64,000 nucleotides of DNA from Dehalococcoidia bacterium (GTDB taxonomy: Bacteria > Chloroflexota > Dehalococcoidia > E44-bin15): NCBI GenBank assembly GCA_035528575.1, contig DATKYK010000029.1, positions 14,824 to 78,823 of the forward strand. The letters are read 5' to 3'. The position numbers and the translations under genes are program-made. Below, piece by piece: positions 2,380-48,315 of this stretch (position 1 is the stretch's first letter; each line of letters opens with the position of its first letter). The notes under the pieces were generated by a model, which saw nothing but the letters and a program-made list of their open reading frames with translations, was not told the origin of the DNA and searched no databases.

Positions 2380-2407
2380 TTGACAAATATCCTATTGACA
2401 ATATAAT
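2380..2407 (+). promoter_or_regulatory. Sigma70-type promoter candidate (TTGACA-16-TATAAT) for hicBA
   Basis: TTGACA at 2380-2385 and TATAAT at 2402-2407, about 70 nt upstream of hicB. Confidence 0.45.
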
Positions 2408-2478
2408 GCAAGGGTGTGGTTTTGCATGGTTTAATTTGGTTGTTCATGGCTTCGTTAGGTAAAACAAAAGGGGGTTGA

Positions 2479-2838: not shown

Positions 2839-2881
2839 GTATACCCAGATTCCTGCTATTTAAGGCAAGCAATTAATTAGA

Positions 2882-3091
2882 TTGCTTAAGAAAGACGGCT
2901 GGGAAGCTCTCAGAAAAGCCAAGCATGGTATTGCTTTATCAAAATCCTTCGGTGACCGCAAACGAGTCACAGTCATTCCAGATAGTCGAGCATCACTCCC
3001 TGATGGCACTTTATCGGCAATACTTGGTGTCAAGCAAACAGGACTTGGTAGGGCTGAATTACTCAACTTGATTATTAAACGTGGGCTTTAA
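2882..3091 (+). CDS. hicA: HicA-family toxin (YcfA-like mRNA interferase); probable non-ATG start
   Basis: The in-frame upstream residues give LIRLLKKDGW, a HicA hallmark. Later residues RKAKHG...K fit the family. An upstream TAA at 2861 limits the ORF, so a TTG or ATT start is used. Confidence 0.55.
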   Translation: MLKKDGWEALRKAKHGIALSKSFGDRKRVTVIPDSRASLPDGTLSAILGVKQTGLGRAELLNLIIKRGL

Positions 3092-3117
3092 CCCAAAGGC
3101 GGCTTATAGAACCTCAG

Positions 3118-3182
3118 GCTATCTTCAAAGCTGACAGGATAGGTATATCGCTTGCACCATCTCCAGGCTTTTCCACCTGCCG
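3118..3182. repeat. ~60-bp repeat element, copy B, immediately after the hicA stop
   Basis: See copy A. It starts 27 nt after the hicA stop codon. Confidence 0.7.
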
Positions 3183-3448
3183 AAAAAGCCAACTACCTTC
3201 ATAAAAGCCCCTTTTCAGCCCCATACTGGCAAAGCCGCCCTTTATAACGCTGTAACTACTTCATGAACACCTACGTAGAGCCATAGACGCCGCCCACCTG
3301 GCTACATTTTATCGGTTGTGTTGCTGTCCTGCATGTACCGGACGAGTAGGTTCTCTTGCATTTAGGTGGTTATGTTCCCCTTGATTGTGGTTGACATATT
3401 ATCCTCATTACTATATTATCCTATATCATCAAACAAAAGGAGGGCTTT

Positions 3449-3619
3449 ATGACTAGTGATGTAATAACCCCTGATATTGCCATACTTTGGGCAGCCACTG
3501 AATTAACTAAAGCATGGGTAGGTACTGGGAAAATAGACCCTAGCACAATTGTTAATACCTTTAATACAATCTATACTGGTATATCAAATACTGCAACGTT
3601 TACTCCTTTTTCTCAGTAA
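3449..3619 (+). CDS. Possible small ORF (56 aa) with a strong RBS (aaaggaggg)
   Basis: A Shine-Dalgarno sequence lies 4 nt before the ATG, and TTGACA-17-TATTAT is about 55 nt upstream. It falls below the ORF-track length cutoff. Confidence 0.3.
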   Translation: MTSDVITPDIAILWAATELTKAWVGTGKIDPSTIVNTFNTIYTGISNTATFTPFSQ

Positions 3620-3799
3620 GGACGCCCGAAAAACTCTCTTGACAGAGCCATTGAATCTCATCAAGTTCTAGCCCTTTGCCTTTCAGAAGTAGAAAGATGT
3701 CTAATCTCTCTTGTATCGCTTCAGGTATTCTCACATCAGAATTATTATCCATTATTATAACCTCCTCTTTACTACACTAATTAATCCTTATACAGGAAC

Positions 3800-4624
3800 T
3801 TAATCTTTACTTAGATACTCCACTAATCCTATCCATGTATTAAATGGCAACTTTAACCCAGCATATACCGCTGGTGTTTTACCCTTCAATGTCATATGTG
3901 GTCTTAGGAAGTTATAGTGAATGATAAAACCTTCAGAGATAGCTATGGCTGAATCTAATGTCTTTAATCCCCTAAAAACCTTCGTGCGCTCTTTGACGGT
4001 TCCCTGGAATCTCTCGATTATGTTAGTATTTACTTCTGCCGTAAGTCCCTTAGCCCTTATATGCTCACTATCAGCACCAAATACTCTCTCAATAGCATCT
4101 GGATACGCTGGCATACCATCCGAGACTATTTGCTTCGGTAGACCTATAACACGGTTGTACGCTTCAGACAATACCGCTACGGCAGACCGCATATCACGGC
4201 TTTTAGTTATATGTGTAGCTAGTAAAAAGCGACTTCTCGAATCTATAACGTCCCATAGCCAGAGTTTTCCCCCTGCTACAGAAATCATCGTCTCGTCGAT
4301 GACCCACTGCCACGATGTTTTTACCTCTAGTTTATTCAGGATACGCTCAGACTTCTTAGAATACTTAATAATCCAACGCCACACTGTAGCAGGGTCAACA
4401 ATGATTCCCTCAGTAGCGACAAGGTGTCTACTAATATCTGCCAGCGATAACCCATCATAGAATAAGCCTAGCGATTCGCCGATTGTCTCAGTAGTGAACC
4501 GCATTCCTTCGGGTGCTAGAGTACCAGCGAATTTACGCCCGCAAGCTTTGCATTTGTAATACTGAGTACCTGCCTTAAAGCCGTATTTCATGGTGCTGGG
4601 TGATTGGCAGAATTTACATTTCAT
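3800..4624 (-). mobile_element. IS6-family (IS26/IS240-like) DDE transposase with an N-terminal zinc ribbon
   Basis: The protein aligns with IS26 Tnp across the catalytic core: TVWRWI.KY, W.IDET.I.V.G.W.W.VIDS, SDGMPAY. The N-terminus has CxxC...CxxC. Terminal inverted repeats could not be recognised. Confidence 0.7.
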
Positions 4625-5274
4625 TTAATATTCATTCTCCAATATTTACCAAATAACCTTACCTCACGAATCTTAATATCACTTACAGACCAATGATAAT
4701 TTGGGCGTGGTTCAATTATCTCAACAACAATTAAATAAACAGGTTCTGGAGTATCAATTGTAAAAGATATATTATGTCTTAACCCAGAGCATTCCTGCTC
4801 CCATTCCTTTAAAATACCTGATGCCCCATTAAGTATTACCCTCCACTTCTTTGGATAATCTGGTGAATCCTTACCATGCATAAAAACAACTTTATCTATT
4901 ACACGAGCTTTGCCATAATCCCAATACCTTATCTTTTTAAATACCTTTGAGGTAGCCTTTAAAATGTAATATATAATTTTGTTAGGACTTTTACGTATAT
5001 CTAAAACGAAAGTATCACCTGTTTCTTGTTGTCTATGGGTTCTCCATTTAGTAGCTTCTTTGCCTTCAAGATAATCTGTACTATTAAGTAAATCAGCCCT
5101 CCAATGTGTCCTATCAGGCCATAATAACCTAGAAATAAATATCCACAAACCTATAACAACTGCAAAAGAGCTAGAAACAATAATAGTTATCATTCTAGGC
5201 GTCCCCGCTAACCCTTCGATTAGTGCGCTTATAACAACACCAGCAACACACATCTTGAGTATTGTCATTAACAT
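4621..5274 (-). CDS. Hypothetical membrane-anchored protein (2 N-terminal TM helices); its stop overlaps the transposase start
   Basis: It overlaps the tnp ATG by 4 nt (ATGA). The region is AT-rich and the protein has no recognisable domain. Confidence 0.45.
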   Translation of the reverse strand: MLMTILKMCVAGVVISALIEGLAGTPRMITIIVSSSFAVVIGLWIFISRLLWPDRTHWRADLLNSTDYLEGKEATKWRTHRQQETGDTFVLDIRKSPNKIIYYILKATSKVFKKIRYWDYGKARVIDKVVFMHGKDSPDYPKKWRVILNGASGILKEWEQECSGLRHNISFTIDTPEPVYLIVVEIIEPRPNYHWSVSDIKIREVRLFGKYWRMNIK

Positions 5275-5412
5275 ATTTATATAATCTTCCCTGCCCTATA
5301 GGTATGAGTATACCAATCTTAAATAAAGAGGCAATTACTCCCGTTAAGAGGAGTATACCACCACTATAAAATTGCCTCAACCCCCTACGCAAGAGAACCG
5401 ACGAGTATAAAA

Positions 5413-5452
5413 GCTTGACTTTTCCTCCTGATAGCTGTTAGATTTGTCCGTG
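5413..5452. repeat. Right copy of ~40-bp imperfect direct repeat flanking the island; contains a putative -35/-10 for the downstream surface protein gene
   Basis: It matches 292-331. It also carries TTGACT-17-TTAGAT upstream of the surface-protein start. Confidence 0.8.
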
Positions 5453-5476
5453 TCTCGGTTCAAGCTCCTACAAAAG

Positions 5477-7012
5477 ATGGCTCTACGATTCGCAACATCT
5501 TTTATTCCTCTAACAATTATAGCATTGCTGACGGTAAGCACCCTTTCCGCTGGAGCCGTGGATAATCTTTTGCAGAACCCAGGCTTCGAGTATGGACCTT
5601 CGGGCTGGTTAAGCTATGGTGGTGGCGCTCTCTCCGTAGTTGGGTCACCAGTCCACAGCGGAGATTTTGCCGCTGCCTTCGAAAGCGACACCGCAACAAC
5701 AAAGTGGATTTATCAGGTCGTATCTGTATTGGGGGGAGAAAGCTATACCTTTTCTGGCTACGCCATAAAAAATGATCCTAATATTGAGACAATTTTCCTA
5801 CGGATCTCCTGGTACCAGAGCCTAGATGGCTTCGGAACCGAGATGGCTCACCACGACTCCCTCACTGTTCTGATAGATGACGAGCCCCAATACCGTCTTT
5901 TAACTACTGATGAGCTTACCGCTCCAATAGATGCACATTCGGCACGAGTTAAAGCGATACTGGAGCCGGTCTCCGACGTGGCAGCAATTGCCTATTTTGA
6001 CGATCTACGCTTCGAAGGGCCTCCGCCAGCTACTCCTACTCCCACGCCGACACCGACTCCTACTCCAACACCAACACCAACACCAACACCAACACCAACT
6101 CCTACACCCACACCCACTTCTACTCCTACTCCTACCCCAACTCCTACACCTATCCCTTCGCCAACGCCTACGCCCACACCAACCCCTACTCCCACGCCTA
6201 CTCCTACGCCTAATCCCACTCCTACTCCTACTCCTACTCCAACACCAACCCACAACGGCACGATCGCCGATATTGGCGATGTGCTGATTAATGAGATCCA
6301 ATACGATTCTCTGCAACCGGGTGTTGATGCTTCCTTCGAGTGGGTGGAGCTCTTTAACTGCACACAAGAGCCTGTTGAGCTTGAAGGATGGAGAATCAGC
6401 GATAACTATGGCAGCGACCCGGTTCCCTCACTACACCTGCCCCCTCAGGAATTCGCGGTAATCGCCGCCTCTCAGGACTTTTACACCAGCTTCCCTGACT
6501 TCACGGGCACCATAGCCTTCATAGACGATAGCCGTGTTGGCAACGGATTGAGCAATGACGGGGACTGCCTCATCCTTGAGGACAGTGCGGAAACTGTTAT
6601 TGATGCTATGTCCTACGGCGATGATAACAGTATATTGCTGCCGCCATGCCTGGATGTGGCCGAAGGCCACTCCCTGGAGCGCCAACCCGCCGGCTTTGAT
6701 ACCGACCAGGCCAGCGACTTTACGGATAATTCAGAGCCCACCCCAGGCTACGGCCTTTCTCCCTCCACATCCTCACCCACACCCACCATGACACCAACGC
6801 CAACAGCGGGTCCCACCGCTACGCCCACTACTACACCGACAGCGACACCTACAACCTCACCTCCCAGCAGTCCCACCCCTGAGGGCACAACGCCGCCGCC
6901 TCAAGAATCCCCGGCTCTCTCTGGAATGGCGTTGCGCGCTATTCTCATTACAGCAGCATTAGCCTTCTTTGCCGTTGTTTTCTGGTTTGGAATGAGAAAG
7001 AGGAGAAAATAA
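5477..7012 (+). CDS. Cell-surface protein: signal peptide, CBM4/9-like domain, PT-repeat linker, Lamin-tail domain (LTD), second S/T/P-rich linker, C-terminal TM anchor with basic tail
   Basis: [11 protein letters not shown] is a CBM4_9 start. (PT)n spans about 60 residues. INEIQYD...EWVELFN...EGWRISD is an LTD signature. The C-terminus is a hydrophobic helix followed by RKRRK. The start is probably MALRF at 5477 rather than the TTG at 5444. Confidence 0.7.
6023..6250. repeat. Tandem hexanucleotide-like repeat (CCNACN)n encoding the PT linker
   Basis: Runs of ccaacaccaacaccaacacc and actcctactcctac appear directly in the DNA. Confidence 0.85.
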
Positions 7013-35357: not shown

Positions 35358-36071
35358 CTACCGCCTTGCTAACACCTTAGGGTCTTCCGTATGTAGAGAC
35401 TCCAGCTTTCTAGCCAGACGAACTCCTATTGGTCGAGAAGCCTCATCATTCTTGAACAAATAGTATTGCTTTTGCATTGACATATTGATTCCTTCTTCTT
35501 CCGTGAATAACACACCGCTTAGTTTCTGATAGCGCTTTGGGTCCGCCTCAATCTCTTGTCGGATATAGGTGAAGGCATCTCTCACGTCAATATGTCGTAC
35601 TTGTATAGTGCTACTCCAATAAACTACTATATTTATTTCTCCATACGAAAAATGACTCAATTCGCCCCCAATTTTCGATATTATATCCTGTGCGCTATTA
35701 GATGCAACAAAACCTGCCTCCGATTTCTCCCAATTATCGTCTTCTTCATTCGGGCGTCTTCTTGTTACTTCAAAATAGACAGTCTGATGGTTGTAATCCG
35801 CTTTTACGTCTGGCCCCTTAGAGGAATATTCAATGTGGATTTGTGAAAATCCATTCCTGCTGAGAATGCGAGCGAATCGCCCCTCCTTCGTAATATCCAG
35901 GTACTCTTGTCGGGTAGCAACTCTTTCTGATAATATACGAACAAATGCATCTATGCCTTGGACACCACAGCTTTGAAGTTCCGTAACCAGTTCCTTTATA
36001 CGTCTTATATCAAAATCTTCGTAGTCAGCTTGGACCATTTTAATAAACAACTTATTCATCATATGCCCCAC
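35358..36071 (-). CDS. Hypothetical protein (237 aa) in a locally AT-rich patch
   Basis: The ORF has atypical, lower GC than its neighbours and no recognisable family. Confidence 0.45.
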   Translation of the reverse strand: MGHMMNKLFIKMVQADYEDFDIRRIKELVTELQSCGVQGIDAFVRILSERVATRQEYLDITKEGRFARILSRNGFSQIHIEYSSKGPDVKADYNHQTVYFEVTRRRPNEEDDNWEKSEAGFVASNSAQDIISKIGGELSHFSYGEINIVVYWSSTIQVRHIDVRDAFTYIRQEIEADPKRYQKLSGVLFTEEEGINMSMQKQYYLFKNDEASRPIGVRLARKLESLHTEDPKVLARR

Positions 36072-36211: not shown

Positions 36212-36484
36212 TCAGCCACCGACAGCTGCAAGCAGGATCAAGAGTTCATCACCATCCTTCAACTCTGCATCAACGGAAGCCTGTCGTCTGTTGATGAAGA
36301 GACGAACGTGAGCGGCTACCTCGCCCTGCTTGGTGAACAGCCATCGCCTGAGTCCGGGAAATTGAGCCGTCAGGTTATTCAGGCAGTCAATGTTGTTATC
36401 TGCGGTAATCTCCACCACCTCTTGACCATCTGCGAATTGGCTCAGCAGCAACTGAAGCCTCACCGTGACGCTCATTTTTACCAT
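36212..36484 (-). CDS. MoaD/ThiS-family ubiquitin-like sulfur-carrier protein (C-terminal Gly-Gly)
   Basis: The protein ends ...LLILLAAVGG. The probable start is MVKMSVTVRL. It lies immediately downstream of an E1-like gene. Confidence 0.65.
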   Translation of the reverse strand: MVKMSVTVRLQLLLSQFADGQEVVEITADNNIDCLNNLTAQFPGLRRWLFTKQGEVAAHVRLFINRRQASVDAELKDGDELLILLAAVGG

Positions 36485-36488
36485 TCCT

Positions 36489-37244
36489 TCAGAATCCGCA
36501 CACGCTGCACTCAGGATTTCTGACCAGATCGACAACGGTAAACTCTATCGTCTCCCCGTTGAAATACAACATCTTGCCGGCAAGTAAGTCACCGAAGCCA
36601 GCAAGCAGTTTAAGCGCTTCCGTAACCTGTAAAGCGGCCATTAGAGCGGGCGCGACGCCGAAGGCCGGAACCGCCCCATCTTCTGCGGGAGCCTGCGGGA
36701 AGATGCAGGCAAAACACGGGGTCTTTCCGGGGATTATCGTGGTAATCTCGCCGAGCAGCCCGTTAATCCCGGCATGGATAAAGGGTATGCCAGCACCAAC
36801 ACACGCTGAGTTCAGAATAAACCTGGTCTCAAAATTGTCCATCCCATCTATCACCGCATGCGCTCCTTCGATGATGCCCCCCACATTGGAATGAGTGATC
36901 TTTTCAAAGATAGGGGTGACCTCCACCGAGGGGTTCAACTTGGCGAGCTTTCGCGCCGCTGAGAGCGTCTTCCTCTCACCTATATCCCCCTCCCAATGAA
37001 GAATTTGCCGGTTTAGATTGGAAAGCTCCACAAAGTCGCCGTCTACTATGGTTATGTGACCGATCCCGCCACAGGCCAAATACACGGAGGATGCGGTTCC
37101 CAGCCCACCAAGTCCCGCCACCACCACATGAGACCGCTTGAGTTTCCTCTGCCCCCTTTCGCCGAAGCCGGGGTATGAAATCTGGCGCCCGTATCTGATG
37201 AGATCGCTTTCAGTCAACATGAATCTTTTTCTCCGTTTCGTCAT
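36489..37244 (-). CDS. ThiF/MoeB/HesA-family E1-like adenylyltransferase
   Basis: The motif VVVAGLGGLGTASSVYLACGGIGHITIVDGDFVELSNLNRQ is the ATP-binding Rossmann signature. Confidence 0.85.
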   Translation of the reverse strand: MTKRRKRFMLTESDLIRYGRQISYPGFGERGQRKLKRSHVVVAGLGGLGTASSVYLACGGIGHITIVDGDFVELSNLNRQILHWEGDIGERKTLSAARKLAKLNPSVEVTPIFEKITHSNVGGIIEGAHAVIDGMDNFETRFILNSACVGAGIPFIHAGINGLLGEITTIIPGKTPCFACIFPQAPAEDGAVPAFGVAPALMAALQVTEALKLLAGFGDLLAGKMLYFNGETIEFTVVDLVRNPECSVCGF

Positions 37245-37563
37245 CGAGCCACCGGAGGTAATCTATATTTCCACCCACTATGGGTAAGGCTATGACCTCG
37301 GGTATCTCATAGCTATGATTCTCCTTTATCAACCCGATCAGCTCATCCAACAGCGCCTCCCTTGTCTTAACGATCAGCAGCACTTCATCGGCGGAATCCA
37401 TCTTGCCATGCCACCAAAATATCGAATGCACCTCTGGCACGATGTTAACGCAGGCAGCCTTCCTCCCCTTAGCCAGGACATTGGCTATCTTCCACGCCTC
37501 CTCCGTGGTAGCTGCCATTATGAAAACGACCACGTAACCAGATTTTTCGCTTTGCACTTTCAC
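37210..37563 (-). CDS. cutA: CutA1 divalent-cation tolerance protein
   Basis: 117 aa, with the motif ...AACVNI.P...S.Y.W.G... typical of CutA. Confidence 0.65.
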   Translation of the reverse strand: MKVQSEKSGYVVVFIMAATTEEAWKIANVLAKGRKAACVNIVPEVHSIFWWHGKMDSADEVLLIVKTREALLDELIGLIKENHSYEIPEVIALPIVGGNIDYLRWLDDETEKKIHVD

Positions 37564-37565
37564 TC

Positions 37566-38360
37566 CTACACATCAGTGGGGCTGGAGAGCTTCACCTGGC
37601 CCCATACTCCTATCCTGTCATCCTTAATGATCACCACCCCCCTCAGCCCCACAATGCCCCGGGCAAACGCTATACCATTGGGTATGTCACTCGCCTTTTT
37701 AACCGTATTGGCAGTAGCGGTAGCGGCAGCATCAGCCAGGGCAGTGGACGGTGAGAGCACGATAACCGCATCGGCCCGGCCTAAGCTGATAGAATGCCCC
37801 ACTGTCCCCGAAGAGGTGCAAATCCCCAGAGGCGTCCCCTCAGGCTCAATCTCCAGGGCGAGCCCTCCCGAAAACGGTGAATCACCGGCATAAACCCCCA
37901 CCGTCCTCCTCCTCTGTATGTGGAGGAAAATATCCCCCCCGTTCTCCACGATCACCTCCGGGGAGAGTTTCATTAACTCCCGGCCCACCCCCTCAGCAAT
38001 GGCCCCGGCCACCGCCGCCATTGGACCTACCCCCGCCCTCTGTGCCGCCTCCGCCATCTCACGCACCATCTGAGGGGCATCCTCCGCCACAGGAATAGGC
38101 TCCATGGCAGTGAGGAAGTGGGGGTGAAGCTCGATGTATTGCTCCAGTGAGGTGCGGTATTCCACAATCGCCCTTAGCGCCTCCTCCCGGAGGTTTCTTT
38201 TCGCCCTGAGATAGAGGTCTGTTTCCTTCACCGCTACATGGAAGGAAGTTAGATCACCATCCCTGATCCAATTCCGGTAGGTCCTGGGCTGATCCACTAA
38301 AAATGAACCTCCATCGCCCTGGGTGGACAAGCCAGCACGCAAAGCTCGCAGGCGGTGCAC
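37566..38360 (-). CDS. ApbE-like COG2122/UPF0280-family protein (assignment mostly contextual)
   Basis: 264 aa, Ala/Gly-rich. It sits between the NIL-ferredoxin and ThiF genes, as in the methanogen homocysteine clusters. Motif evidence is weak. Confidence 0.35.
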   Translation of the reverse strand: MHRLRALRAGLSTQGDGGSFLVDQPRTYRNWIRDGDLTSFHVAVKETDLYLRAKRNLREEALRAIVEYRTSLEQYIELHPHFLTAMEPIPVAEDAPQMVREMAEAAQRAGVGPMAAVAGAIAEGVGRELMKLSPEVIVENGGDIFLHIQRRRTVGVYAGDSPFSGGLALEIEPEGTPLGICTSSGTVGHSISLGRADAVIVLSPSTALADAAATATANTVKKASDIPNGIAFARGIVGLRGVVIIKDDRIGVWGQVKLSSPTDV

Positions 38361-38707
38361 TTTTCCTCATCGAAATTCACCATCCTGGTTTTAGGATCGA
38401 TTGCCAGCGCCCCGGTGGGGCAAATAACCACACAGGCCCCACAATGAGTGCACCTGGCATCGTTGCGCATGATGTCCTGACCCAATGACTGAATCCCCAC
38501 CCCCGCCTCCTGTAGATAGCGGATGCCCTTATCATAGTCGCCACGGTTCCCGGATAGCTCCAGCACCATAATCCCCTCCTCCTTTGGGGTCACCGACGCC
38601 TTCAGTATGTTGAGCACCAGGTCGTAGTCCCTGACCAACCGGTGGATTATCGGCTGGTCCACCATTCGAGACGGAAAGTGCAACACCACCCTTTTAGAAA
38701 TAGTCAT
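38297..38707 (-). CDS. NIL-domain / 2x[4Fe-4S] ferredoxin fusion protein
   Basis: The N-terminal NIL-like domain is followed by CTHCGACVVICP and CTACELCVLACP. Confidence 0.75.
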   Translation of the reverse strand: MTISKRVVLHFPSRMVDQPIIHRLVRDYDLVLNILKASVTPKEEGIMVLELSGNRGDYDKGIRYLQEAGVGIQSLGQDIMRNDARCTHCGACVVICPTGALAIDPKTRMVNFDEEKCTACELCVLACPPRAMEVHF

Positions 38708-39011
38708 TTTTCAACCTCTCTTTACAGTCAAGTATCGCCTATAAAATATATCATCAACCTACTCGTGCTACTTCTTTTTTACACGGTTTGCGCTCAAGCT
38801 CCCTCTCATCCCGACAAAAAACTATTTGTGATAGCTCGGGCATAGAGAAAGTGTTAAGCCACCGCCTTCAATTGTATTTGCCACTTGTGGATGTCATCTT
38901 TGGCAAGCCTGAGGTATCGGGCGATGGTCCTGCAAGATGCTATAGTTATCCGCTTTTCCATATAGTTGACACCTATACAATACATCTCCACGGGTAACAC
39001 TTTGTATCTAA

Positions 39012-40220
39012 CTACTCCCCTATGGGCCGCTCCTTTAGAGGCTTGACGGTGATCCCCTCCTCAACACCGGGAAGCGGTGCTACCGGCTCGGTTAGCAGGA
39101 ATTCCCCCCTCATCATCCAATCCTTGAGTATATTGGCGATCTCCACCGCCCTGGGGTAGCTCGAGAGCGATGCTGTGGGTACCTCCTTGCCCTGAAGCGA
39201 TATCCTGCCGCTCCTGAGCTCGCCATAGCTAACCTCCCCGAGAATGTCAGGGCTCCGCTGCGGATAGGCGTCGCTGTAATCCACAATGGGGGCGAATATA
39301 TCTTCTTCCTTTACCGCAGTGTAGCGCAGTATCTCCTCGGACAGGATGGGTATGGGGACGCCGATGCCCACGGTCAGGGTAGCACCGTAGCCAAGCATGC
39401 TAGTTCCCACCAGCCACCTGTGGTTCATTCGCTTCAGATCGCCGATCACCGCCAGCGTTCCCGCTCCTCTCCGGGGCACCCCGTCAGTGGAGCGCAGCGC
39501 ATCAGGGCTATGCTGGGTACCATGCCAGGCGACATACCCCATGCCACCCCCCAGGAAAAGCCTCGTCCCGATACCAATAGTCTTATAGAACGGGTCGTTA
39601 AGCAGCGGGGAGAGTTGACCCGCTGAGCAGTAGTTGGCACTACCCAGTTTCGGCTTGAGCACCCCCATATATGTATAGATGGTCTTTTCTGAGAGATTCA
39701 CCGCCACATTGTAGTTCTGGTAGGAGTTTCTCATGTTAAACAGAACCGCCTCATTGAGGTCTTTAATATTAATCCAGGTCTCCAGCCTTTTTCTGGGGTA
39801 GCAATCCGTGCCGTAGGCTGAGACCACCAGCCTCACATCCCTCCCAGCTACCAGTTCCTCAATGACATGCCCGCCGCCGTAATTAAAGGGGCCGGGGCGA
39901 ACCCTGTTTCTGGGATCATCATCGGGGATGGCGGTCGCGCCCAGAAAAACGTCTACTGCGGCAACCCCGGTATAAACGGGAACATCATTGACGTAGGCTC
40001 TTCCGCCACCTACCTTTATCCTTGGCTTGGAGTGCCCCAGGTTGAAGTAGGCACTCGAGCCGCACATGGGACTGAAGGTGCCCGTGGTCACCACATCCAC
40101 CTCCCTGGCAGCCTTCTCCACGCCTTTCTTCGCCACCAGACCGATGACCTCCTCGGCGGTTACCACTACCGCCTGGCCCTTGCCAATCTTTTCATTTATC
40201 TCCGCGATGGTCTTTGTCAA
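39012..40220 (-). CDS. DUF39 (COG1900) homocysteine-biosynthesis protein
   Basis: 402 aa with the Gly-rich DUF39 core and no CBS domains. It lies adjacent to a NIL-ferredoxin gene. Confidence 0.6.
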   Translation of the reverse strand: MTKTIAEINEKIGKGQAVVVTAEEVIGLVAKKGVEKAAREVDVVTTGTFSPMCGSSAYFNLGHSKPRIKVGGGRAYVNDVPVYTGVAAVDVFLGATAIPDDDPRNRVRPGPFNYGGGHVIEELVAGRDVRLVVSAYGTDCYPRKRLETWINIKDLNEAVLFNMRNSYQNYNVAVNLSEKTIYTYMGVLKPKLGSANYCSAGQLSPLLNDPFYKTIGIGTRLFLGGGMGYVAWHGTQHSPDALRSTDGVPRRGAGTLAVIGDLKRMNHRWLVGTSMLGYGATLTVGIGVPIPILSEEILRYTAVKEEDIFAPIVDYSDAYPQRSPDILGEVSYGELRSGRISLQGKEVPTASLSSYPRAVEIANILKDWMMRGEFLLTEPVAPLPGVEEGITVKPLKERPIGE

Positions 40221-40275
40221 TTCCCCCTCCTCTTTTGGTACTAACTAAAGCTGGAACCCATAACAGCCTCTTTAA

Positions 40276-41001
40276 TCATCCGCGCGCCATCCCACGTTCG
40301 CCACCCCGCTTCTCAGGTTTCTCCTCATCCTTCTGAAGGCTGAGGGACTCCTCAATACGCCGCAGGCGCTCAGCCAGCCCGGACTGCTCAGCAATGATAA
40401 GCTTGAGTGCATCATTAACCGGGTCTGGCAATCTACCATGTTCCAGAGCCTCCGCTGGCCCCTCATCCCCCGTCACTGCACGCCCGGGAATCCCCACCAC
40501 GGTTGCCCCAGGGGGCACGGACTGCACCACCACCGAGCCGGCGCCGACCCTCGCCCCATCCCCAATGGTAATTGCACCCAGTAATGTGGCCCCCGCTCCA
40601 ACAACCACGTTGTTACCGAGGGTGGGGTGGCGTTTCCGCTTCTCATGGGTAGTTCCCCCCAGGACCACACCCTGATATAGCAGCACATCGTTGCCGATCT
40701 CCGAGGTCTCCCCGATGACCACGCCCATGCCATGGTCGATGAAGAACCTCCTGCCGATGGCGGCTCCGGGGTGAATCTCGATCCCGGTCCAGAAGCGACT
40801 TAATTGGGAGAGCAAGCGACCGGCGAGGCGGAGTCTATGCCGCCATAGGAAATGGGCGACCCGATGAAGCCATAAGGCATGTAGCCCTGGATAGCAGCAG
40901 ATGACCTCCAGATAGCTTCTCGCCGCCGGGTCTTTATCAAGAACCGTCTTCAGGTCCTCCCCTAGTATACCTAAGGGATTAGGCAACTTCATTACCTCCA
41001 A
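40276..41001 (-). CDS. cysE: Serine O-acetyltransferase (left-handed beta-helix hexapeptide repeats)
   Basis: An N-terminal SATase helical domain followed by hexapeptide repeats ([25 protein letters not shown]). Confidence 0.8.
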
Positions 41002-41917
41002 AAAGTCCGGTGCTCAGATAGCGCTCCCCGCTATCGGGCAGGATCACTACGATAAGCCTGTCCTTGTTTTCCCTTCTTTTCGCCACCTCTATTGCAGCCC
41101 AGGTTGCCGCCCCCGACGAGATGCCCGCCAGTATCCCCTCCTCCCTGGCCAACCGCTCCGCCATCACCGCCGCATCTTCATCAGTGACCGCAATGATTTC
41201 ATCAATGAGTGCCAAGTTAAGAACCTCAGGGACAAATCCTGCGCCGATGCCCTGAATCCGATGGGAGCCAGCCTTCCCCCCGGAGAGGACTGGCGAGCCC
41301 GCCGGCTCTACAGCAATGGCCCGAAAGCCCGGTTTTTTCTGCTTGATCACCTCGGCGGTCCCGGTGATCGTCCCGCCGGTACCCACGCCGGCAACAAGAA
41401 TGTCCACCCGCCCCTCAGTATCCTTCCAGATCTCCTCGGCAGTGGTCTCGCGATGAACCCATGGGTTGGCGGGATTTCGGAACTGTTGGGGCATATAGGA
41501 ATCGGGGATACTTTTCACCAGTCGCTCCGCTTCCCTGATCGCCCCGCTCATTCCCGCTGCTCCCGGCGTCAAGACCAACTCAGCCCCTAAGGCCTTGAGC
41601 AGCCTGCGGCGCTCCCGGGACATCGTGTCAGGCATGGTGAGGATCAATCGATAGCCCCTGGCGGCGCAGACAAAGGCCAGGGCGATCCCGGTATTGCCAC
41701 TGGTGGGCTCGATGATAACAGTGCCCTCTTTGATCGCGCCTTCCCCTTCAGCGGCATTAATCATGGAGACACCGATCCTGTCCTTGATACTGCCGCAGGG
41801 GTTGAAAGCCTCCAGCTTGGCCACCACCTCTGCACCCAGCCCCTGGCTCACCCTGTTCAGCCTTACCAGAGGGGTATTCCCCACCAGCCCGGTAATACTG
41901 TTGGCAATCCCCGGCAT
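40979..41917 (-). CDS. cysK: Cysteine synthase / O-acetylserine sulfhydrylase (PLP fold type II)
   Basis: The Lys motif CGSIKDR and a Gly-rich loop GTGGT. Confidence 0.85.
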
Positions 41918-42344: not shown

Positions 42345-45300
42345 CTAGTCTGAAAGCGGTACTTTCCCTTTGCATTCAGGATAGCGGCTGCATACGTGGA
42401 ATCTGCTACCGGCATTCGGGCCCTTTTTTGCTGTCATTACGACTGTGGCAGAGCCGCATTTTGGACACCTGATATCACCTGTCGTTACCGCAACTCGTTT
42501 GCGGTTGCGCAGACCATCGGCCAGGCTGTAAATCACCGGAATAACCACGAGGGTCAATAGTGTTGAAGTGAACAGACCACCGATCACTACCACGGCCAGC
42601 TCAGCAGCGATAATAGTGCCCTCTCCGACTCCAACAGCCAGTGGTACCATAGCTATCATTGTGGTTAACGCCGTCATCAGGATCGGTCGCAGCCTTGTTT
42701 GTCCGCCTTCAATCAGGGCATCGTAGGCGCTCATACCACTCTTCTGCAATTGTACCACCAAGGCAATGAGGACGATTGCGTTGGTGAGCACTATGCCCAC
42801 GAGCATCAGTATACCCATCATTCCCGACATACCTAGGGTATAACCAGAAATCAGTAGACCCAAAATGGCGCCAATAGATGCCAGTGGCAGGCTGACCATG
42901 ATAATAAGGGGATTCAGTATTGATCTCATTGAGATGACAAGTATCAGCAAGGCGATGAATATTGCGGCGATTATGGCGATGGCCATGCTGGAGAAGCCAC
43001 TCGCCATCTCCTCAAATATCCCACCTATCTTTACATCTACGCCCTCAAGTCCGGGGGTAGCCAGTACCTCATCGATTGCCTCATTAACCTGGCTGTTAAC
43101 TGCGCCCATATCCTTTTCATCAACGGTACCCGATATAGCGGCTGAGAACTGCAGATCATAGTGGCTGATATGGGTGGGACTCAGTGGCAGATCTACATCC
43201 GAGATATTACCCAAGGTTCCAAATACCGGAAAGCCCATCGGCAGCGCTTCTGTCAACGTTGTGGGATCATCGGCAAAATACAGCTCTCCGGAAATCCCCT
43301 TCAGCGTAATGCCATAGCTATCACTGTCTATGCTTACCATAACATCGTCAGAGCTAGTCCCCGATGTCAAGAGATACTTCTCTTTGTACGTTTCATTAAT
43401 CTGCTCATCGCTCAGCCCCATGCCAATCATTTTGGATATATCTAGATCAATGACTAGTGTAGGCACAACCAAAGTGAGCTGGGTCTCGAGGTTCGATATA
43501 CCCTCAATATCCAACAGCCTTTCATAAAGCAATTCAGCAGCCCGGTTTACCTCATCAGAGCTTTCTCCTACAACCGATAGATCGACACCAGCTGCGCCCA
43601 TCATACCGGCGTCCGATTCCTCGCCAGTGAGAACCTTGACGAAATCGAATCCCACCCCCTCCCTTAAATCATCGAGGCCCTCATCTAGCGCAAGACGTTC
43701 CCTTTTCTCATCCGTATTCGGTTCTAGCATGATTGTGATCTCAGCGGTGTTGTCACCACCACCCTGCATTGTGCTTATGATGCCCATCAGCGATGATGAC
43801 GTCCCTATAGTTGACCAGTAGTACTGCATGCCTTGAACCTGGTTATCGATTACTGACTCAACCTGTGCGACAACATCACTGGTGTCTTGGAGCTCAGTCC
43901 CGGGTAAAAGTTCAATCTCTACCATTAGCATAGGCATACCCATACTGGGTAAAAACGAAGTCCCGATCACAGGGATAAGCATAATACTGCCAATAAATAG
44001 AATGAAGGCGATTACCAGGGTGATGGCCCGGTGGCCCAGAGCCCACTTAAGCACAGAAACGTACCCTCTCTGATACCAGCTTTGACGTGGTTTGGTCTTC
44101 TCTTCGCCGACCCTATTTCTTTGTTTGCCAACGAACCACTTCGAGAAGGCGGGTACTACTATCAGCGCTACCAACAGTGAGGCTATCAATGCAAACGTTA
44201 TTGTGAGAGCAAACGGAACGAAGAGCTCCCCCACGATGCCGCCAACAAAGGCCAGCGGCAGGAAAATGGCTACGGTAGCTAGAGTAGCGGATGTGATCGG
44301 GGCTGCTACCTCTCTCGAGCCGCCAATTGCAGCTGCTCGAAAGTCCTCCCCGGCCTTCATACGGCGATATATAACCTCCGTGACCACTATGCTGTTATCA
44401 ATCAGACGACCAACAGCAATCGCCATAGCACTCAGGGTCAGGAGATTAATGGTAATGCCGGCAAAGTACATGACCAGAAAACCGATCAATACACTCACTG
44501 GAATAGACATTGCTGTCACAAGCGAAGCGCGGAAAGCCATCAAGAAGAGAAAGACAATAAATATTGCCAAAATGAAGCCAATAATCGCCATCAGTAGCAA
44601 CTGGCTTACGCTATCCTCAATGAACTCCGATTGGTCTAAAAGTGGAACGACTGTGATATCCCCTTGCAGATCCGCCTCGATCTCACGTGACTTTTCCATT
44701 ACCGCATTTGCTGTGTCGACGGTATTTGCATCACTCTCTTTCATCACGAAGATCGCCACACTCGGCTCTCCGTTCGTTTGCGTGATAGCCTTGTTCGGAG
44801 ATGGCCCGGTTTCCACACTGGCTATGTCGTCTAGGACTACACCGTCCACACCCATAGGTGCATTCCTGATAGCATCCAGGGAATCAAATTGCCCATTCAT
44901 TCTGAGCAACGCTACCATCTGATACAAAGAGACATTTGATGCCACTAGCTGTTGAGGATCGGGTGAGATGATAACCCTTTCCTTATCACCACCCTCAACT
45001 TCCACACTGAAGACTCCCTCAACTTGTGCAAAAAACGGAATAAATTGATCCTCTGCAATATTTTTCAGCTCGTACTGGGAATAGTTACCACTGAGGCTCA
45101 GGATCACCAGGGGCATCTGGCTGAGGTCGATAGGTATAATCTGGGGATTACCTTCTAACTGCCGGACTTCATCAGGAAGATCGAGACCATCAATGGCTTC
45201 CGCTATGGCACTGTTCGTGTCATCCATATTGGTGCCGTATTCAAAAGTCATAAATAGAACAGAAATTCCACTTGCCGACGTAGAGGATATGTGCTTTAGA

Positions 45301-45572
45301 CCCCGCCCTTCAAATCGCTCCCAGATGACATCTTCAATGGGCACCGTCACTTCGCTCACAACCGCTTCTGGTAAAGCATCCGGATAAACTGTTATTGCAC
45401 TGATAAAGGGGAATTCGATGTTGGGTATCAGCTCCGTCTTAAGCTGAAAAGTGCCCCAGATTGCGGCACCCGTTAATAGGACTGCTAATAAGATCGTTAA
45501 CAGGCGGCTGCGTATACCTAGCTTAGTTAGATACCACATACTCTCTCCCTTCAGGTCTTGGACTAGAACCAC
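42345..45572 (-). CDS. RND-superfamily efflux transporter (AcrB/MMPL-like) with a C-terminal topoisomerase-type C4 zinc ribbon
   Basis: Twelve TM helices in two halves with large extracytoplasmic loops. The C-terminus is CPKCGS...FHVCSRYPECKG. The start is likely MWYLTK at 45539. Confidence 0.75.
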   Translation of the reverse strand: MVLVQDLKGESMWYLTKLGIRSRLLTILLAVLLTGAAIWGTFQLKTELIPNIEFPFISAITVYPDALPEAVVSEVTVPIEDVIWERFEGRGLKHISSTSASGISVLFMTFEYGTNMDDTNSAIAEAIDGLDLPDEVRQLEGNPQIIPIDLSQMPLVILSLSGNYSQYELKNIAEDQFIPFFAQVEGVFSVEVEGGDKERVIISPDPQQLVASNVSLYQMVALLRMNGQFDSLDAIRNAPMGVDGVVLDDIASVETGPSPNKAITQTNGEPSVAIFVMKESDANTVDTANAVMEKSREIEADLQGDITVVPLLDQSEFIEDSVSQLLLMAIIGFILAIFIVFLFLMAFRASLVTAMSIPVSVLIGFLVMYFAGITINLLTLSAMAIAVGRLIDNSIVVTEVIYRRMKAGEDFRAAAIGGSREVAAPITSATLATVAIFLPLAFVGGIVGELFVPFALTITFALIASLLVALIVVPAFSKWFVGKQRNRVGEEKTKPRQSWYQRGYVSVLKWALGHRAITLVIAFILFIGSIMLIPVIGTSFLPSMGMPMLMVEIELLPGTELQDTSDVVAQVESVIDNQVQGMQYYWSTIGTSSSLMGIISTMQGGGDNTAEITIMLEPNTDEKRERLALDEGLDDLREGVGFDFVKVLTGEESDAGMMGAAGVDLSVVGESSDEVNRAAELLYERLLDIEGISNLETQLTLVVPTLVIDLDISKMIGMGLSDEQINETYKEKYLLTSGTSSDDVMVSIDSDSYGITLKGISGELYFADDPTTLTEALPMGFPVFGTLGNISDVDLPLSPTHISHYDLQFSAAISGTVDEKDMGAVNSQVNEAIDEVLATPGLEGVDVKIGGIFEEMASGFSSMAIAIIAAIFIALLILVISMRSILNPLIIMVSLPLASIGAILGLLISGYTLGMSGMMGILMLVGIVLTNAIVLIALVVQLQKSGMSAYDALIEGGQTRLRPILMTALTTMIAMVPLAVGVGEGTIIAAELAVVVIGGLFTSTLLTLVVIPVIYSLADGLRNRKRVAVTTGDIRCPKCGSATVVMTAKKGPNAGSRFHVCSRYPECKGKVPLSD

Positions 45573-45721: not shown

Positions 45722-46291
45722 CTAGCGTTCCGTCTCTTGCAAGCCCCTAACCACTTTCTCCATGAGCATTAAAAACATAGTCTGTTCCTCGGCCGTCAGC
45801 TGGGAAAGCATTTGCCGGAAACGCTGTACCATATATCTCTCAGTAGTCTGGTAAAGCTCCCGTCCACCATCTGTGAGAGCTACCCGAACAACCCTCCTAT
45901 CTTCCGGGTCGGGTAACCTCTGTGCGTACCCGTTATCCACAAACCAGTCGACCATCCGCGTTGCACTGCTGAACGGCACCGATAGTGCATGGCTTAATTC
46001 ACTCATTGTCATGTTAGTTACCCGATAGAGATTGAAGCTTATACGACAGAAAAGGTTGTAGTTTATGAAGCGATGAGGTTTATCTCCGATATGTATCCCA
46101 TCAAGCAGATATTGCAGTTTCTCAAGATCTTTGGGCAACATAGCATTGAACTTTATCTCTATCTGTAGCAAGTCCTGTACAAGACTAGCTATCCGGCCAT
46201 CGTAAACCTGTTGCTGATAATCATCTGTCATTAAATTCCCCGTGAAATATTTCCATAATGGAATAATATTACGGTCCTGTTGAATTGTCAA
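45722..46291 (-). CDS. MarR-family transcriptional regulator
   Basis: A winged-helix motif SELSHALSVPFSSATRMVDWFVDNGY...DRRVVRVALTDGG. Confidence 0.75.
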   Translation of the reverse strand: MTIQQDRNIIPLWKYFTGNLMTDDYQQQVYDGRIASLVQDLLQIEIKFNAMLPKDLEKLQYLLDGIHIGDKPHRFINYNLFCRISFNLYRVTNMTMSELSHALSVPFSSATRMVDWFVDNGYAQRLPDPEDRRVVRVALTDGGRELYQTTERYMVQRFRQMLSQLTAEEQTMFLMLMEKVVRGLQETER

Positions 46292-46378
46292 TCCCTGTTA
46301 CCAGGAGTCTTATATTACCCTTTCTTGCGAAAAAGCCGAAAACAACATAAACTAATGATATCCAGTGGAGGTGGTCAT

Positions 46379-47110
46379 ATGCTAGAGGTGGAAGATTTAA
46401 CCGTAGAGGTTGAGGGCAGGGAGGTAATTCATGACATTAGCCTCAATGTCGATGTTGGCGAGACCCTGGCTCTTTTCGGCCCTAATGGCAGCGGCAAGAC
46501 CACATTGCTGATGGCGATTATGGGCTTCCCCCGCTACAAGGTAACCAGGGGACGCATCCTCTTCAATGGGGAGGATATTACCCATTTGCCGGTGGATGAG
46601 CGTTCCCGGATGGGTATCGGCATCCTCTTCCAGCGCCCTCCGGTGGTGCGCGGCGTGAAGATGAGGGATATGGTGCGGGCGTGCCTGGGCAGCAGGGAAG
46701 ACGGTGCCGTTATCGAGCAGCTTGCCGAGCAGGCAAATATGGTAGAGCTCCTCGATCGAGATGTGAACTATGGGTTTTCCGGTGGCGAGATCAAGCGCTC
46801 GGAGCTACTACAGCTAATCGCCCAGAGCCCGGAATTCGTCCTGCTCGATGAGCCCGATTCCGGGGTCGACCTGGTGAACATCTCACTGGTCGGCGAGATG
46901 ATCAACGAGCTTTTACAGAAGAACCGTATGCGCAGCAGAACCAGCTCCGGCCTGATCATTACCCACACCGGACACATCCTGGATTATGTCAATGCAGACC
47001 GGGCCTGTGTCCTGCTTAATGGCGGCATCTGGTGTCGCGGAAATCCGCAGGAGATTCTGACCAGCATAAAGAGTCATGGCTACGAAGGCTGTGCCGTATG
47101 TCAGAAATAA
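46379..47110 (+). CDS. sufC: Fe-S cluster assembly ATPase SufC
   Basis: Walker A GPNGSGKTT, the ABC signature, and Walker B. The start is assigned to the ATG at 46379, which follows the RBS ggaggtg. Confidence 0.85.
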   Translation: MLEVEDLTVEVEGREVIHDISLNVDVGETLALFGPNGSGKTTLLMAIMGFPRYKVTRGRILFNGEDITHLPVDERSRMGIGILFQRPPVVRGVKMRDMVRACLGSREDGAVIEQLAEQANMVELLDRDVNYGFSGGEIKRSELLQLIAQSPEFVLLDEPDSGVDLVNISLVGEMINELLQKNRMRSRTSSGLIITHTGHILDYVNADRACVLLNGGIWCRGNPQEILTSIKSHGYEGCAVCQK

Positions 47111-48315
47111 AACGCCCTCGAGAAACGGAGGAAAGAAAACACTCTCCCCCCGGGGATAGCATCGATCTAGATGCCTACTCCCAGGTAGCGGAGGAACATC
47201 CCTATCAAGAAGACCCCTCTCTCCTTCCGTCTCAAGACAAGGAGCGTATCCTGGGTTCGGGGGTGATGCTGGATGACCCGGCACAGCGCTCTGGTACCTT
47301 CCTCCAGATCGACCACTCGGTGGTTCACAGCAAAGCGGAGCAGGAAGGGCTGGAGCTCATGAGCACCGTTGCGGCGCTGGAGAAATACCCCTGGCTCCCG
47401 GATTACTGGTGGCAGGCAGTATCTCCCGGTGCCGATAAATTCACCGCCGAGGCGGAGCGCAACCAGCATCATGGCTATTTCATCCGCACGCTCCCCGGGG
47501 TAAAGGCCATACAGCCAGTCCAGGCCTGTCTTTATATCTCTCAGCATGGTCTGGCCCAGAACGTGCACAATGTCATTATCGCCGAGGAGGGCTCGGAGCT
47601 TCATATAATTACCGGCTGTGCCACCGCGAAGATGGAAAGGGAGGGCCTTCACATCGGGATTTCCGAGTTCTATGTGAAGAAAGGGGCCAAAATTACCTTC
47701 ACCATGATCCACAACTGGGCGCCCAGGATGGCGGTGCGCCCCCGCAGCGGGATAATCGTTGAAGAGGGCGGCACATTCTTAAGCAACTACGTCTGTCTCA
47801 AGCCGGTACGCACCCTGCAGATGTACCCCAAGGCGCGATTAGTCGGGGAAAACGCCCTGATACGTTTCAACAGCGTTCTTGTTGCCGCTACGGGATCAAC
47901 AATGGATGTCGGCTCCCGTGTCATCCTGGAGGCCAGGGGAAGCAGGGCGGAGATTGTATCGCGGGCGATCACCACCGGGGGGAGTATCATCGCCCGGGGT
48001 CACCTGGTAGGGCAGGTTCCCGATGTCAAGGGGCACCTGGAGTGCCGCGGCCTGATCCTATCGGAGGAGGGGGTAATTCACGCCATTCCCGAGCTTGAGG
48101 GATGGGTAGAAGGGGTAGACCTCTCTCACGAGGCAGCGGTGGGCAAGATTGCGGAGGAAGAGATAGAGTACCTCATGGCGCGGGGCCTCTCCCGGGACGA
48201 AGCTGTCGCGGTCATTATAAGGGGTTTCTTAAGCGTTGACATCGAGGGCTTACCGCCGGAGCTCAGCGCTCAAATGCAGCGCGCCATCGAGCTAAGCGAG
48301 CAGGAACTGCTATAA
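47098..48315 (+). CDS. sufB: Fe-S cluster assembly protein SufB/SufD family
   Basis: The SufBD beta-helix core. The probable start is MSEIKRP at 47098, overlapping sufC by 13 nt. Confidence 0.75.
   Translation: MSEIKRPRETEERKHSPPGDSIDLDAYSQVAEEHPYQEDPSLLPSQDKERILGSGVMLDDPAQRSGTFLQIDHSVVHSKAEQEGLELMSTVAALEKYPWLPDYWWQAVSPGADKFTAEAERNQHHGYFIRTLPGVKAIQPVQACLYISQHGLAQNVHNVIIAEEGSELHIITGCATAKMEREGLHIGISEFYVKKGAKITFTMIHNWAPRMAVRPRSGIIVEEGGTFLSNYVCLKPVRTLQMYPKARLVGENALIRFNSVLVAATGSTMDVGSRVILEARGSRAEIVSRAITTGGSIIARGHLVGQVPDVKGHLECRGLILSEEGVIHAIPELEGWVEGVDLSHEAAVGKIAEEEIEYLMARGLSRDEAVAVIIRGFLSVDIEGLPPELSAQMQRAIELSEQELL

Follow-up and report, generated by a model that had tools for sequence, protein, structure and literature searches.

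In a 64,000-nt stretch of DNA from a Dehalococcoidia bacterium (GenBank assembly GCA_035528575.1, contig DATKYK010000029.1, positions 14,824 to 78,823, hereafter the window), a cluster of eight genes joins a known module for homocysteine synthesis to a ThiF/MoeB-type E1 adenylyltransferase and to a small ubiquitin-fold protein that ends in Gly-Gly. We read this locus as a sulfur amino-acid supply unit in which a thiocarboxylate carried by the Gly-Gly protein would deliver sulfur to the DUF39 enzyme, a reading that we place just short of even chances. The three-gene homocysteine route, cysK/cysE and E1/carrier systems all had precedents, and part of the wider sulfur island was described in 2026. 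The novelty lies in the stripped-down operon, in which the E1/carrier pair is joined to the homocysteine module without other clients, together with the repeated joining of the two by independent ThiF lineages and the CysO-like character of the carrier.

The first-pass annotation of this DNA had proposed the minus-strand order cysK, cysE, DUF39, NIL-ferredoxin, ApbE-like protein, cutA, ThiF/MoeB E1 and Gly-Gly carrier. All eight co-directional open reading frames (ORFs), spanning positions 36212-41917, lie where it had put them, and searches with hidden Markov models (HMMs) bear out the family calls. The features are, in the order in which they are read:

40979..41917, minus strand: cysK, O-acetylserine sulfhydrylase A (312 aa; TIGR01139)
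40276..40992, minus strand: cysE, serine O-acetyltransferase (238 aa from ATG 40992; 241 aa from TTG 41001; TIGR01172)
39012..40220, minus strand: DUF39/HcyBio (COG1900), candidate L-aspartate-semialdehyde sulfurtransferase (402 aa; PF01837)
38708..39011, no strand: spacer between DUF39 and NIL-ferredoxin (304 nt), AT-richer, no conserved element
38297..38707, minus strand: NIL domain fused to a 2x[4Fe-4S] ferredoxin, NIL-Fd (136 aa; PF09383 + Fer4)
37566..38297, minus strand: COG2122 / UPF0280, ApbE-superfamily protein (243 aa from GTG 38297; NF003323)
37210..37563, minus strand: CutA1-family protein (117 aa; PF03091)
36489..37220, minus strand: ThiF/MoeB-type E1 adenylyltransferase (243 aa; PF00899)
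36212..36475, minus strand: CysO/SAMP1-like ubiquitin-fold sulfur carrier with C-terminal Gly-Gly (87 aa; 90 aa if the start is at 36484)

The five genes from NIL-Fd to the carrier follow one another at junctions of -1, +2, -11 and +4 to +13 nt, and these overlapping or near-zero junctions indicate that NIL-Fd, COG2122, CutA, ThiF and the carrier are translationally coupled. Further upstream, cysK and cysE overlap, 55 nt separate cysE from DUF39, and 304 nt separate DUF39 from NIL-Fd. Reading of the junctions places the start of COG2122 most likely at the GTG, which has one base in common with the NIL-Fd stop codon (TAGTG), and this, together with the deposited gene call, corrects the 264 aa first given for the ApbE-like protein to 243 aa. 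By the same reading ThiF starts at ATG 37220, 11 nt inside CutA, and the carrier starts at ATG 36475 or at 36484, not at the start of a 107-aa ORF. The deposited calls agree with these lengths for COG2122 and ThiF and choose 90 aa for the carrier. In the deposited metagenome-assembled genome (MAG) the names are 'cysteine synthase A', 'homocysteine biosynthesis protein', 'NIL domain-containing protein', 'UPF0280 family protein' and 'HesA/MoeB/ThiF family protein', and the carrier is entered as a 'hypothetical protein'.

The homocysteine module is the most firmly identified part of the cluster. The DUF39 protein matches the HcyBio family over its full length (PF01837, 491 bits, profile positions 1-349 of 349), as against only 115 bits with the model of the coenzyme-M paralogue (TIGR03287, cut-off 364). 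Its Cys53 and Cys140 are invariant across 101 homologues, and Cys53 corresponds to Cys54 of the Methanosarcina enzyme, which is essential (PMC12068725). NIL-Fd combines a NIL domain (PF09383, 61 bits) with Fer4 families and carries two CxxCxxCxxxCP motifs, all eight cluster cysteines of which are invariant in 77 homologues. The ApbE-like protein had been linked to COG2122 and scores above the curated cut-off of that family (NF003323, PRK04334.1-3, 322.5 bits, cut-off 271). It also matches PDB 2o34 (E 1.6e-45) and is called 'UPF0280 family protein' at NCBI and 'ApbE superfamily uncharacterized protein (UPF0280 family)' at JGI; the local Pfam copy returned no match for it, but precomputed tables list PF27030 AbpE_bact for its homologues from related loci. 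Neither this protein nor the 402-aa protein was drawn by HMM searches to an unrelated family. In Methanosarcina and Desulfovibrio, homocysteine is made from aspartate semialdehyde through DUF39, NIL/ferredoxin and COG2122 (PMC5764234, PMC4045070, PMC12068725), the role of MA1715 being as described in PMC5764234 and PMC12068725, and the Dehalococcoides locus DET0921:DET0919 was flagged as the same pathway (PMC5764234). The published role invoked for the three families in the first-pass annotation holds (PMC5764234, PMC4045070), and by its sequences the trio of the window is an ordinary member of this sulfide-dependent pathway. Its DUF39 protein is a candidate for making homocysteine from aspartate semialdehyde and a sulfur donor, which is supported by context and by genetics published for other organisms. 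In one related locus (L167, 3140-4228), an aspartate-semialdehyde dehydrogenase gene (Asd) stands between HcyBio and NIL-Fd, and its place inside the module speaks, by direct gene context, for aspartate semialdehyde as the substrate.

The small protein at the end of the operon terminates in LLAAVGG and matches the ThiS, MoaD and SAMP1 models weakly; against Pfam ThiS it reaches 19.8 bits, below the cut-off of 22.5 that less diverged homologues pass. [quoted passage not shown] Foldseek returned Haloferax volcanii SAMP1 first (TM-score 0.89), with CysO of Mycobacterium tuberculosis and of Amycolatopsis (range 0.83-0.89), as against 0.60-0.78 for true MoaD subunits. A search with the single sequence retrieved 35 close relatives only and a profile search was needed, which gathered more than 7,000 family members. 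Run against the PDB, the profile of the carrier family ranked two CysO entries first (E about 1e-11), followed by SAMP1 (1e-6), an archaeal MoaD (9e-5) and Escherichia coli ThiS (0.16), and the Gly-Gly terminus is kept in 56 of the 60 carrier homologues of the loci. Judged by profile and predicted fold, the nearest relatives of the carrier are CysO and SAMP1 rather than the MoaD or ThiS of E. coli, and it is a candidate for forming a C-terminal thiocarboxylate. The possibility had been raised that the pair would group with molybdopterin or thiamin paralogues: the carrier, nearest to CysO by profile, does not do so, while the E1 scores best against MoeB.

The E1 itself (PF00899, 232 bits) has the glycine-rich nucleotide loop GLGGLG and the cysteine pairs C169/C172 and C238/C241 conserved, and can be aligned over its whole length with both MoeB (165 bits) and ThiF (144 bits) of E. 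coli, the two CxxC zinc motifs being kept. It falls below all NCBIfam equivalog cut-offs (PRK08762, 241 for a cut-off of 449; PRK05690, 213 for 266; UbaA, 209 for 450; TIGR02356, 199 for 275). A rhodanese domain is absent, and so is a crossover-loop cysteine, Pro/Val occupying the place of C187 in MoeB and C184 in ThiF, and sulfur must therefore reach the E1/carrier pair from outside the E1.

Gene order was examined in 80 loci found by a metagenome scan with the window ThiF (46-97% identity) and in 80 found by a DUF39 scan limited to one genome per species (65-89% identity, from Dehalococcoidia and about 10 other phyla), the six-frame ORFs of the loci being searched with the window proteins; loci are cited below by L numbers. 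L082-L085 and L150 repeat the gene order of the window, their DNA being 83-92% identical to it, and L081 keeps CutA-ThiF-MoaD. DUF39 lies within about 5 kb of ThiF in 11 of the 15 ThiF loci that have at least 5 kb on both sides, and DUF39 is present in 20 of the 35 loci where at least one flank reaches 5 kb. The ThiF proteins associated with DUF39 form at least five lineages at about 55% identity (less than 55% to each other). Among the 34 loci holding both genes, 13 lack Thi4 and 25 lack cysK, and in 12 the homocysteine module adjoins ThiF/carrier or stands one gene away, ThiF being mostly followed by the Gly-Gly carrier. Neither Thi4 nor cysK is in view in L005, L015, L020 and L024, where the order is DUF39-NILFd-COG2122-(MOSC)-ThiF; a MoaD-like gene comes after ThiF in L005 and L020, L015 ends at the contig edge, and none was called in L024.

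Seen from DUF39, NIL-Fd follows in 65 of the 80 loci, and COG2122 follows NIL-Fd in 36, nearly all from Dehalococcoidia. ThiF comes directly after NIL-Fd in L048 (Aerophobetes) and in L050 (Deltaproteobacteria), the latter with the order cysK-NifS-NifU-MoaD-DUF39-NILFd-ThiF, in which MoaD is the Gly-Gly carrier. L009 reads NifS-Rrf2-ThiF-MoaD(GG-NK)-x-TusA-JAB-Thi4-DUF6775-cysK-DUF39-NILFd-x-COG2122. Inspection of six members of the carrier family on long contigs placed HcyBio-NILFd-COG2122 (PF27030 AbpE_bact) within 8 kb of the carrier in four, one contig ending just after Thi4; among these six, L167 has the order HcyBio-Asd-NILFd-COG2122-NadA-MOSC-CutA-ThiF-MoaD and no Thi4. Furthermore, in L089 a ThiF 79% identical to that of the window and its carrier come after a Cys/Met pyridoxal phosphate (PLP) enzyme, a ThrC-family PLP enzyme that bears a zinc ribbon at its N-terminus and a stand-alone NIL protein of 92 aa, and L090 keeps NIL-ThiF-MoaD-NifS. 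Thiocarboxylate-dependent homocysteine synthesis has been described for MetM, a ThrC homologue, with MetO, Mec and MoeZ (GapMind 2026 preprint), and the gene content of L089 suggests the kind of context in which the known thiocarboxylate homocysteine routes occur. Since the ThrC-family enzyme of L089 passes a threonine-synthase model, naming it MetM-like is only a lead. We had also considered MetO as a NIL protein and dropped the idea, MetO being described in the GapMind preprint as a sulfur-carrier protein.

Several observations weigh against a carrier dedicated to DUF39. A ThiF gene occurs anywhere in only 10 of the 80 DUF39 loci (3 of the 32 with full flanks), leaving 70 without one. In the closest species representative (L001, 89% DUF39 identity), cysK-cysE-DUF39-NILFd-COG2122-CutA is followed by a nitroreductase gene without ThiF-MoaD, and alignment with L084 reveals a clean 1.2-kb presence/absence of ThiF-MoaD between CutA and nitroreductase (L001 ~5381-5387, L084 ~4830-6050), the flanks being 87-92% identical. 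About 20 loci show NifS-NifU-(ArsR-methyltransferase)-ThiF-MoaD-(MOSC)-(FdhD)-NadA-(CutA)-Thi4-DUF39-NILFd-COG2122-DHODH. Because NadA, FdhD, MOSC, CutA and Thi4 separate the carrier from DUF39 in this commonest arrangement, other clients are equally near to it; FdhD and MOSC often lie directly 3' of the carrier. Members of the same ThiF clade adjoin an aldehyde:ferredoxin oxidoreductase gene and a second MoaD-like gene (L105, L107, L109, L113, L120; also L096, L103), and one of the six carriers inspected adjoins FdhD and a molybdoenzyme. The E1 finds its best matches, among the HMMs as in the PDB, in MoeB. SAMP1, to which the carrier is structurally just as close, serves molybdopterin synthesis (PMC4443979), and because SAMP1-type proteins have this function in archaea, the CysO-like grouping of the carrier is compatible with a molybdopterin role. 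Finally, three genes (DUF39, NIL/ferredoxin, COG2122) are required for homocysteine synthesis in Desulfovibrio, with no E1/carrier mentioned (PMC5764234). A ThiF- or MoaD-type partner goes unmentioned in all three pathway papers (PMC5764234, PMC4045070, PMC12068725), whose proposals are a persulfide on the DUF39 enzyme and a 'sulfur trafficking' role for COG2122, no carrier being named. The vicinity of the ThiF/carrier pair to the DUF39 module, on which the initial proposal was built, is repeated and multi-lineage, and it is also non-specific.

The locus could accordingly belong to a general sulfur-relay island, whose E1/carrier pair would be shared or otherwise dedicated (Mo/W cofactor, Thi4 thiazole, tRNA thiolation, cofactor sulfuration). 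Proximity to DUF39 would then result from co-regulation or co-inheritance of sulfur genes in Dehalococcoidia, with DUF39 taking sulfide directly or via COG2122. We regard this as a real possibility, though one that falls short of probable. The usual NifS-NifU...Thi4-DUF39 context, the oxidoreductase and molybdoenzyme settings, the MoeB-like E1 and the insertion/deletion of the pair among close relatives all speak for it, as does a 2026 paper in which Thi4 clusters with ThiF, ThiS, CysK, NifS, MOSC, FdhD and HcyBio: the relay is read there as serving Thi4, and HcyBio is listed merely as a neighbour (PMC13325395). On the other side, all that the window and its clade have of the island is cysK, cysE, the homocysteine module, CutA and the pair. 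No JAB/Mec, TusA, Thi4, NadA, NifS, NifU, MOSC, FdhD or MetM-like gene turned up when the 64 kb were searched in six frames, and Thi4, NadA, FdhD, MOSC, NifS and MoaE were likewise missing from the recovered flanks. About 40 more ORFs, and the flanking sequence of the parent contig recovered past each end of the window, held no moa or thi gene (MoaE, ThiG) when scanned with Pfam, nor are MoaE and ThiG found among the annotated neighbours in the loci; these flanks added no sulfur, molybdopterin or thiamin genes. Together with the loci devoid of Thi4 and the greater nearness of the carrier to CysO than to bacterial MoaD or ThiS, this argues against a shared relay here, and CysK and the DUF39 system are the only sulfur-using clients within reach of the locus.

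A CysO/CysM-like cysteine route, in which the thiocarboxylate would feed the cysteine synthase with O-acetylserine provided by CysE, is suggested by the best solved relatives of the carrier (the M. tuberculosis and Amycolatopsis CysO proteins), by the presence of cysK and cysE on the same strand of the same cluster, and by loci in which cysK adjoins ThiF/carrier (L056, L149) or accompanies JAB and the GG-NK carrier (L009). We nevertheless find it improbable. The enzyme of the window (TIGR01139, 468 bits, cut-off 351) has as its best solved relative M. tuberculosis CysK1 (2q3b, 443 bits), CysM does not occur in the top 60, and the cysM model TIGR01138 stays below its cut-off, so that by sequence this CysK is of the sulfide-using CysK1 type. 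Moreover, the window holds no JAB/Mec hydrolase to free cysteine from the carrier, the pair is coupled to the opposite end of the cluster, at a distance of five genes from cysK, and cysK is missing from 25 of the 34 loci with ThiF and DUF39. With a CysK of the sulfide-using type and no JAB protein present, DUF39 is more probable than CysK as the client here. Conjugation of the Gly-Gly protein to target lysines, as in SAMPylation or by Urm1, with regulation of sulfur enzymes as its outcome, is hardly to be expected and the least likely of the readings considered. Foldseek does put SAMP1 on top, and the SAMP1 and UbaA models of NCBIfam rank with the best-scoring ones; their scores lie far below the cut-offs, the window has no JAB deconjugase, the neighbours are sulfur-incorporating enzymes, and the literature examined gave no evidence for bacterial conjugation of this type. 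Delivery of sulfur by a thiocarboxylate into the DUF39 pathway, as first proposed for this DNA, is retained as the best single hypothesis on the strength of the recurrent association and of the CysO-like carrier, whereas the specificity of the coupling is the part that does not stand firm.

Under this hypothesis of delivery to DUF39, CysK and CysE would make cysteine from serine, acetyl-CoA and sulfide, while DUF39, NIL-[4Fe-4S] ferredoxin and COG2122 would make homocysteine from aspartate semialdehyde by the Methanosarcina/Desulfovibrio route. ThiF would adenylate the Gly-Gly terminus of the carrier, and the acyl-adenylate would be converted to a C-terminal thiocarboxylate by sulfide or by an external protein persulfide (NifS-type in relatives). 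In the ThiS/ThiG system, the thiocarboxylate attacks a carbonyl and an acyl shift follows. By similar chemistry the thiocarboxylate, a protected sulfide equivalent, may add on DUF39 to aspartate semialdehyde at its aldehyde carbon. The carrier carboxylate would then be freed by an S-to-O acyl shift, leaving a thioaldehyde that NIL-Fd would reduce to homocysteine. A thioaldehyde intermediate has already been proposed for DUF39 (cited in PMC5764234). Such a route fits the absence of JAB, as the acyl shift needs no release protease. COG2122 and CutA would be accessory, and the carrier may have other clients elsewhere in the genome.

We extend this proposal, with more doubt than belief, to Dehalococcoidia at large and some other anaerobes: a CysO/SAMP1-like thiocarboxylate would be the physiological sulfur donor of DUF39, adding to the aldehyde in a ThiS/ThiG-like manner, with the NIL domain as docking module. 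If true, this would be a third, non-PLP kind of thiocarboxylate-dependent amino-acid synthesis, and the ThiF/ThiS genes of the islands that have been assigned to Thi4 would serve homocysteine synthesis also, or instead. Annotation tools built on the three-gene pathway would miss a possible fourth and fifth component. With the compact set formed by the genes from NIL-Fd to MoaD plus DUF39, the identity of the sulfur donor of DUF39 becomes accessible to direct tests. Should the coupling prove false, the locus would be an ordinary neighbourhood of sulfur genes.

Stand-alone NIL proteins of related loci, some of them next to ThiF or the carrier, hint that the NIL domain and the E1/carrier pair work together. 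These proteins, of about 77-92 aa and beginning MAKRRVMFTFP, were seen in L005 (5415-5651), L013 (12373-12612), L028 (7033-7263), L057 (9314-9547), L089 (6720-6998) and L090 (122-364). They come after COG2122 in L013, L028 and L057, after the carrier in L005 and before ThiF in L089 and L090; none occurs in the window. In three further loci (L086, 946-1197; L087, 6693-6998; L088, 1032-1325), a small chimeric ORF before ThiF combines the N-terminus of the Cys/Met PLP enzyme with the C-terminus of the stand-alone NIL protein, both as in L089. It is a deletion remnant, and ThiF there has lost its carrier gene. An O-acylhomoserine sulfhydrylase or ThrC-like MetM, absent from the window, was found beside an orthologous pair in L089 only.

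CutA (PF03091, 110 bits), which had seemed an oddity of the cluster, proves to be a recurrent gene of these islands. It is present in 17 of the 160 scanned loci and in two of the six carrier-anchored ones (L165, L167), the loci with CutA including L001, L002, L003, L016, L091, L101, L121, L132, L138, L142 and L151. It is placed after COG2122 or between NadA and Thi4, and the CutA-ThiF-MoaD order of L167 is that of the window. Conservation reaches at least 97% of the 16 sequences at Cys38 and at some 20 further positions. The papers examined did not reveal a role for CutA in sulfur handling.

CysE (TIGR01172, 243 bits, cut-off 211) is matched over residues 15-174 only, and its gene encodes a charged C-terminal extension of about 65 aa ending in GMARG (40276-40480). 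Canonical serine acetyltransferases bind CysK by a short tail ending in Ile. Given this extended tail, the classical cysteine synthase complex may not form here.

Some loci have further features of their own. L009 (3318-12977) is the fullest island, and its ORF between NIL-Fd and COG2122 is aspartyl-protease-like. In L022 (12767-13611), three tandem MoaD-like genes come directly after COG2122, two of them ending in GG and the middle one in CFPRS, and a NifU-like ORF of 72 aa lies between DUF39 and NIL-Fd. An arsenic-type module (ArsR, S-adenosylmethionine-dependent methyltransferase, ArsP permease, SBF/ACR3-like carrier) recurs between NifS-NifU and ThiF, being upstream of ThiF in L104, L116, L119, L125, L165, L168 and others.

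Elsewhere in the window, an RND (AcrB-family) transporter gene lies directly upstream of the cluster (42345-45572), with a C-terminal topoisomerase-type zinc ribbon at 28 bits, below cut-off; a MarR-family gene lies at 45722-46291. Genes for a SufC-like ABC ATPase and a SufB/D-core protein occupy 46280-48315, 4-6 kb upstream of cysK, and similar Suf genes stand inside the DUF39/ThiF cluster of L023 and L091. Positions 1-6000 are of low GC content (0.42-0.43 versus ~0.54), hold an rve-family transposase (3800-4624) besides several ORFs that match no family, and are probably a mobile insertion. Downstream of MoaD, an ORF of 237 aa (35358-36071) was rejected as a member of the conserved unit, having no Pfam match and a homologue in none of the 160 loci. 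The 304-nt spacer between DUF39 and NIL-Fd is shared with L150 alone (91% identical DNA), other relatives having 2-160 nt, and was for this reason dropped as a conserved element; it is possibly an internal promoter region. Promoter and terminator scans gave no excess over shuffled controls, a weak promoter-like match being present upstream of cysK (41973-41945), and Rfam, scanned over 30-48 kb with E values of up to 1 allowed, returned only a chance microRNA match and no riboswitch or T-box.

Compared with known systems, the window shares three families with the DUF39 pathway of Methanosarcina acetivorans (MA1821/MA1822/MA1715), Desulfovibrio (DvMF_1464/0262/0044) and Dehalococcoides (DET0921:DET0919), has the gene order of the Dehalococcoides locus (PMC5764234), and conserves the essential cysteine and both Fe-S motifs. 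The trio of the window differs in being translationally fused to CutA, E1 and Gly-Gly carrier genes, with cysK-cysE ahead. The Thi4-centred clusters (Oliveira-Filho et al. 2026, PMC13325395) hold ThiF, ThiS-like, CysK, CysE, NifS, NifU, MOSC, FdhD, HcyBio and DUF6775 genes that also co-occur in relatives of this locus, whereas the version of the window lost, or never had, Thi4 and the other clients.

Among the E1/carrier systems, CysO-CysM-Mec-MoeZ of M. tuberculosis likewise has a CysO-like carrier (by profile and fold), an E1 and an enzyme of the CysK/M family in one cluster; the window differs in having a CysK1-type enzyme in place of CysM, no Mec/JAB, and an E1 devoid of the rhodanese domain of MoeZ. 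The extended carrier and JAB of L009 resemble both CysO/Mec and HcyS/HcyD. With ThiS/ThiF/ThiG the window shares a minimal E1 with a zinc site, a Gly-Gly carrier and the proposed chemistry, but it lacks ThiG, its carrier is remote from E. coli ThiS (E 0.16), and its E1 has no equivalent of ThiF Cys184. Archaeal SAMP1/UbaA offers the best structural match of the carrier and a comparable minimal E1 (UbaA, 209 bits), yet the window proteins, which come from a bacterial host, score well short of the equivalog cut-offs, and no JAB protease is encoded in the window. Wolinella HcyS/HcyF/HcyD/MetY and Streptomyces MetO/MoeZ/Mec/MetM resemble the window in placing a ubiquitin-like carrier and an E1 beside homocysteine genes. 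The window has no PLP enzyme of the MetY/MetM type, and since its candidate client is a non-PLP DUF39 protein acting on an aldehyde, both the chemistry and the release of the product would differ from those of these two systems.

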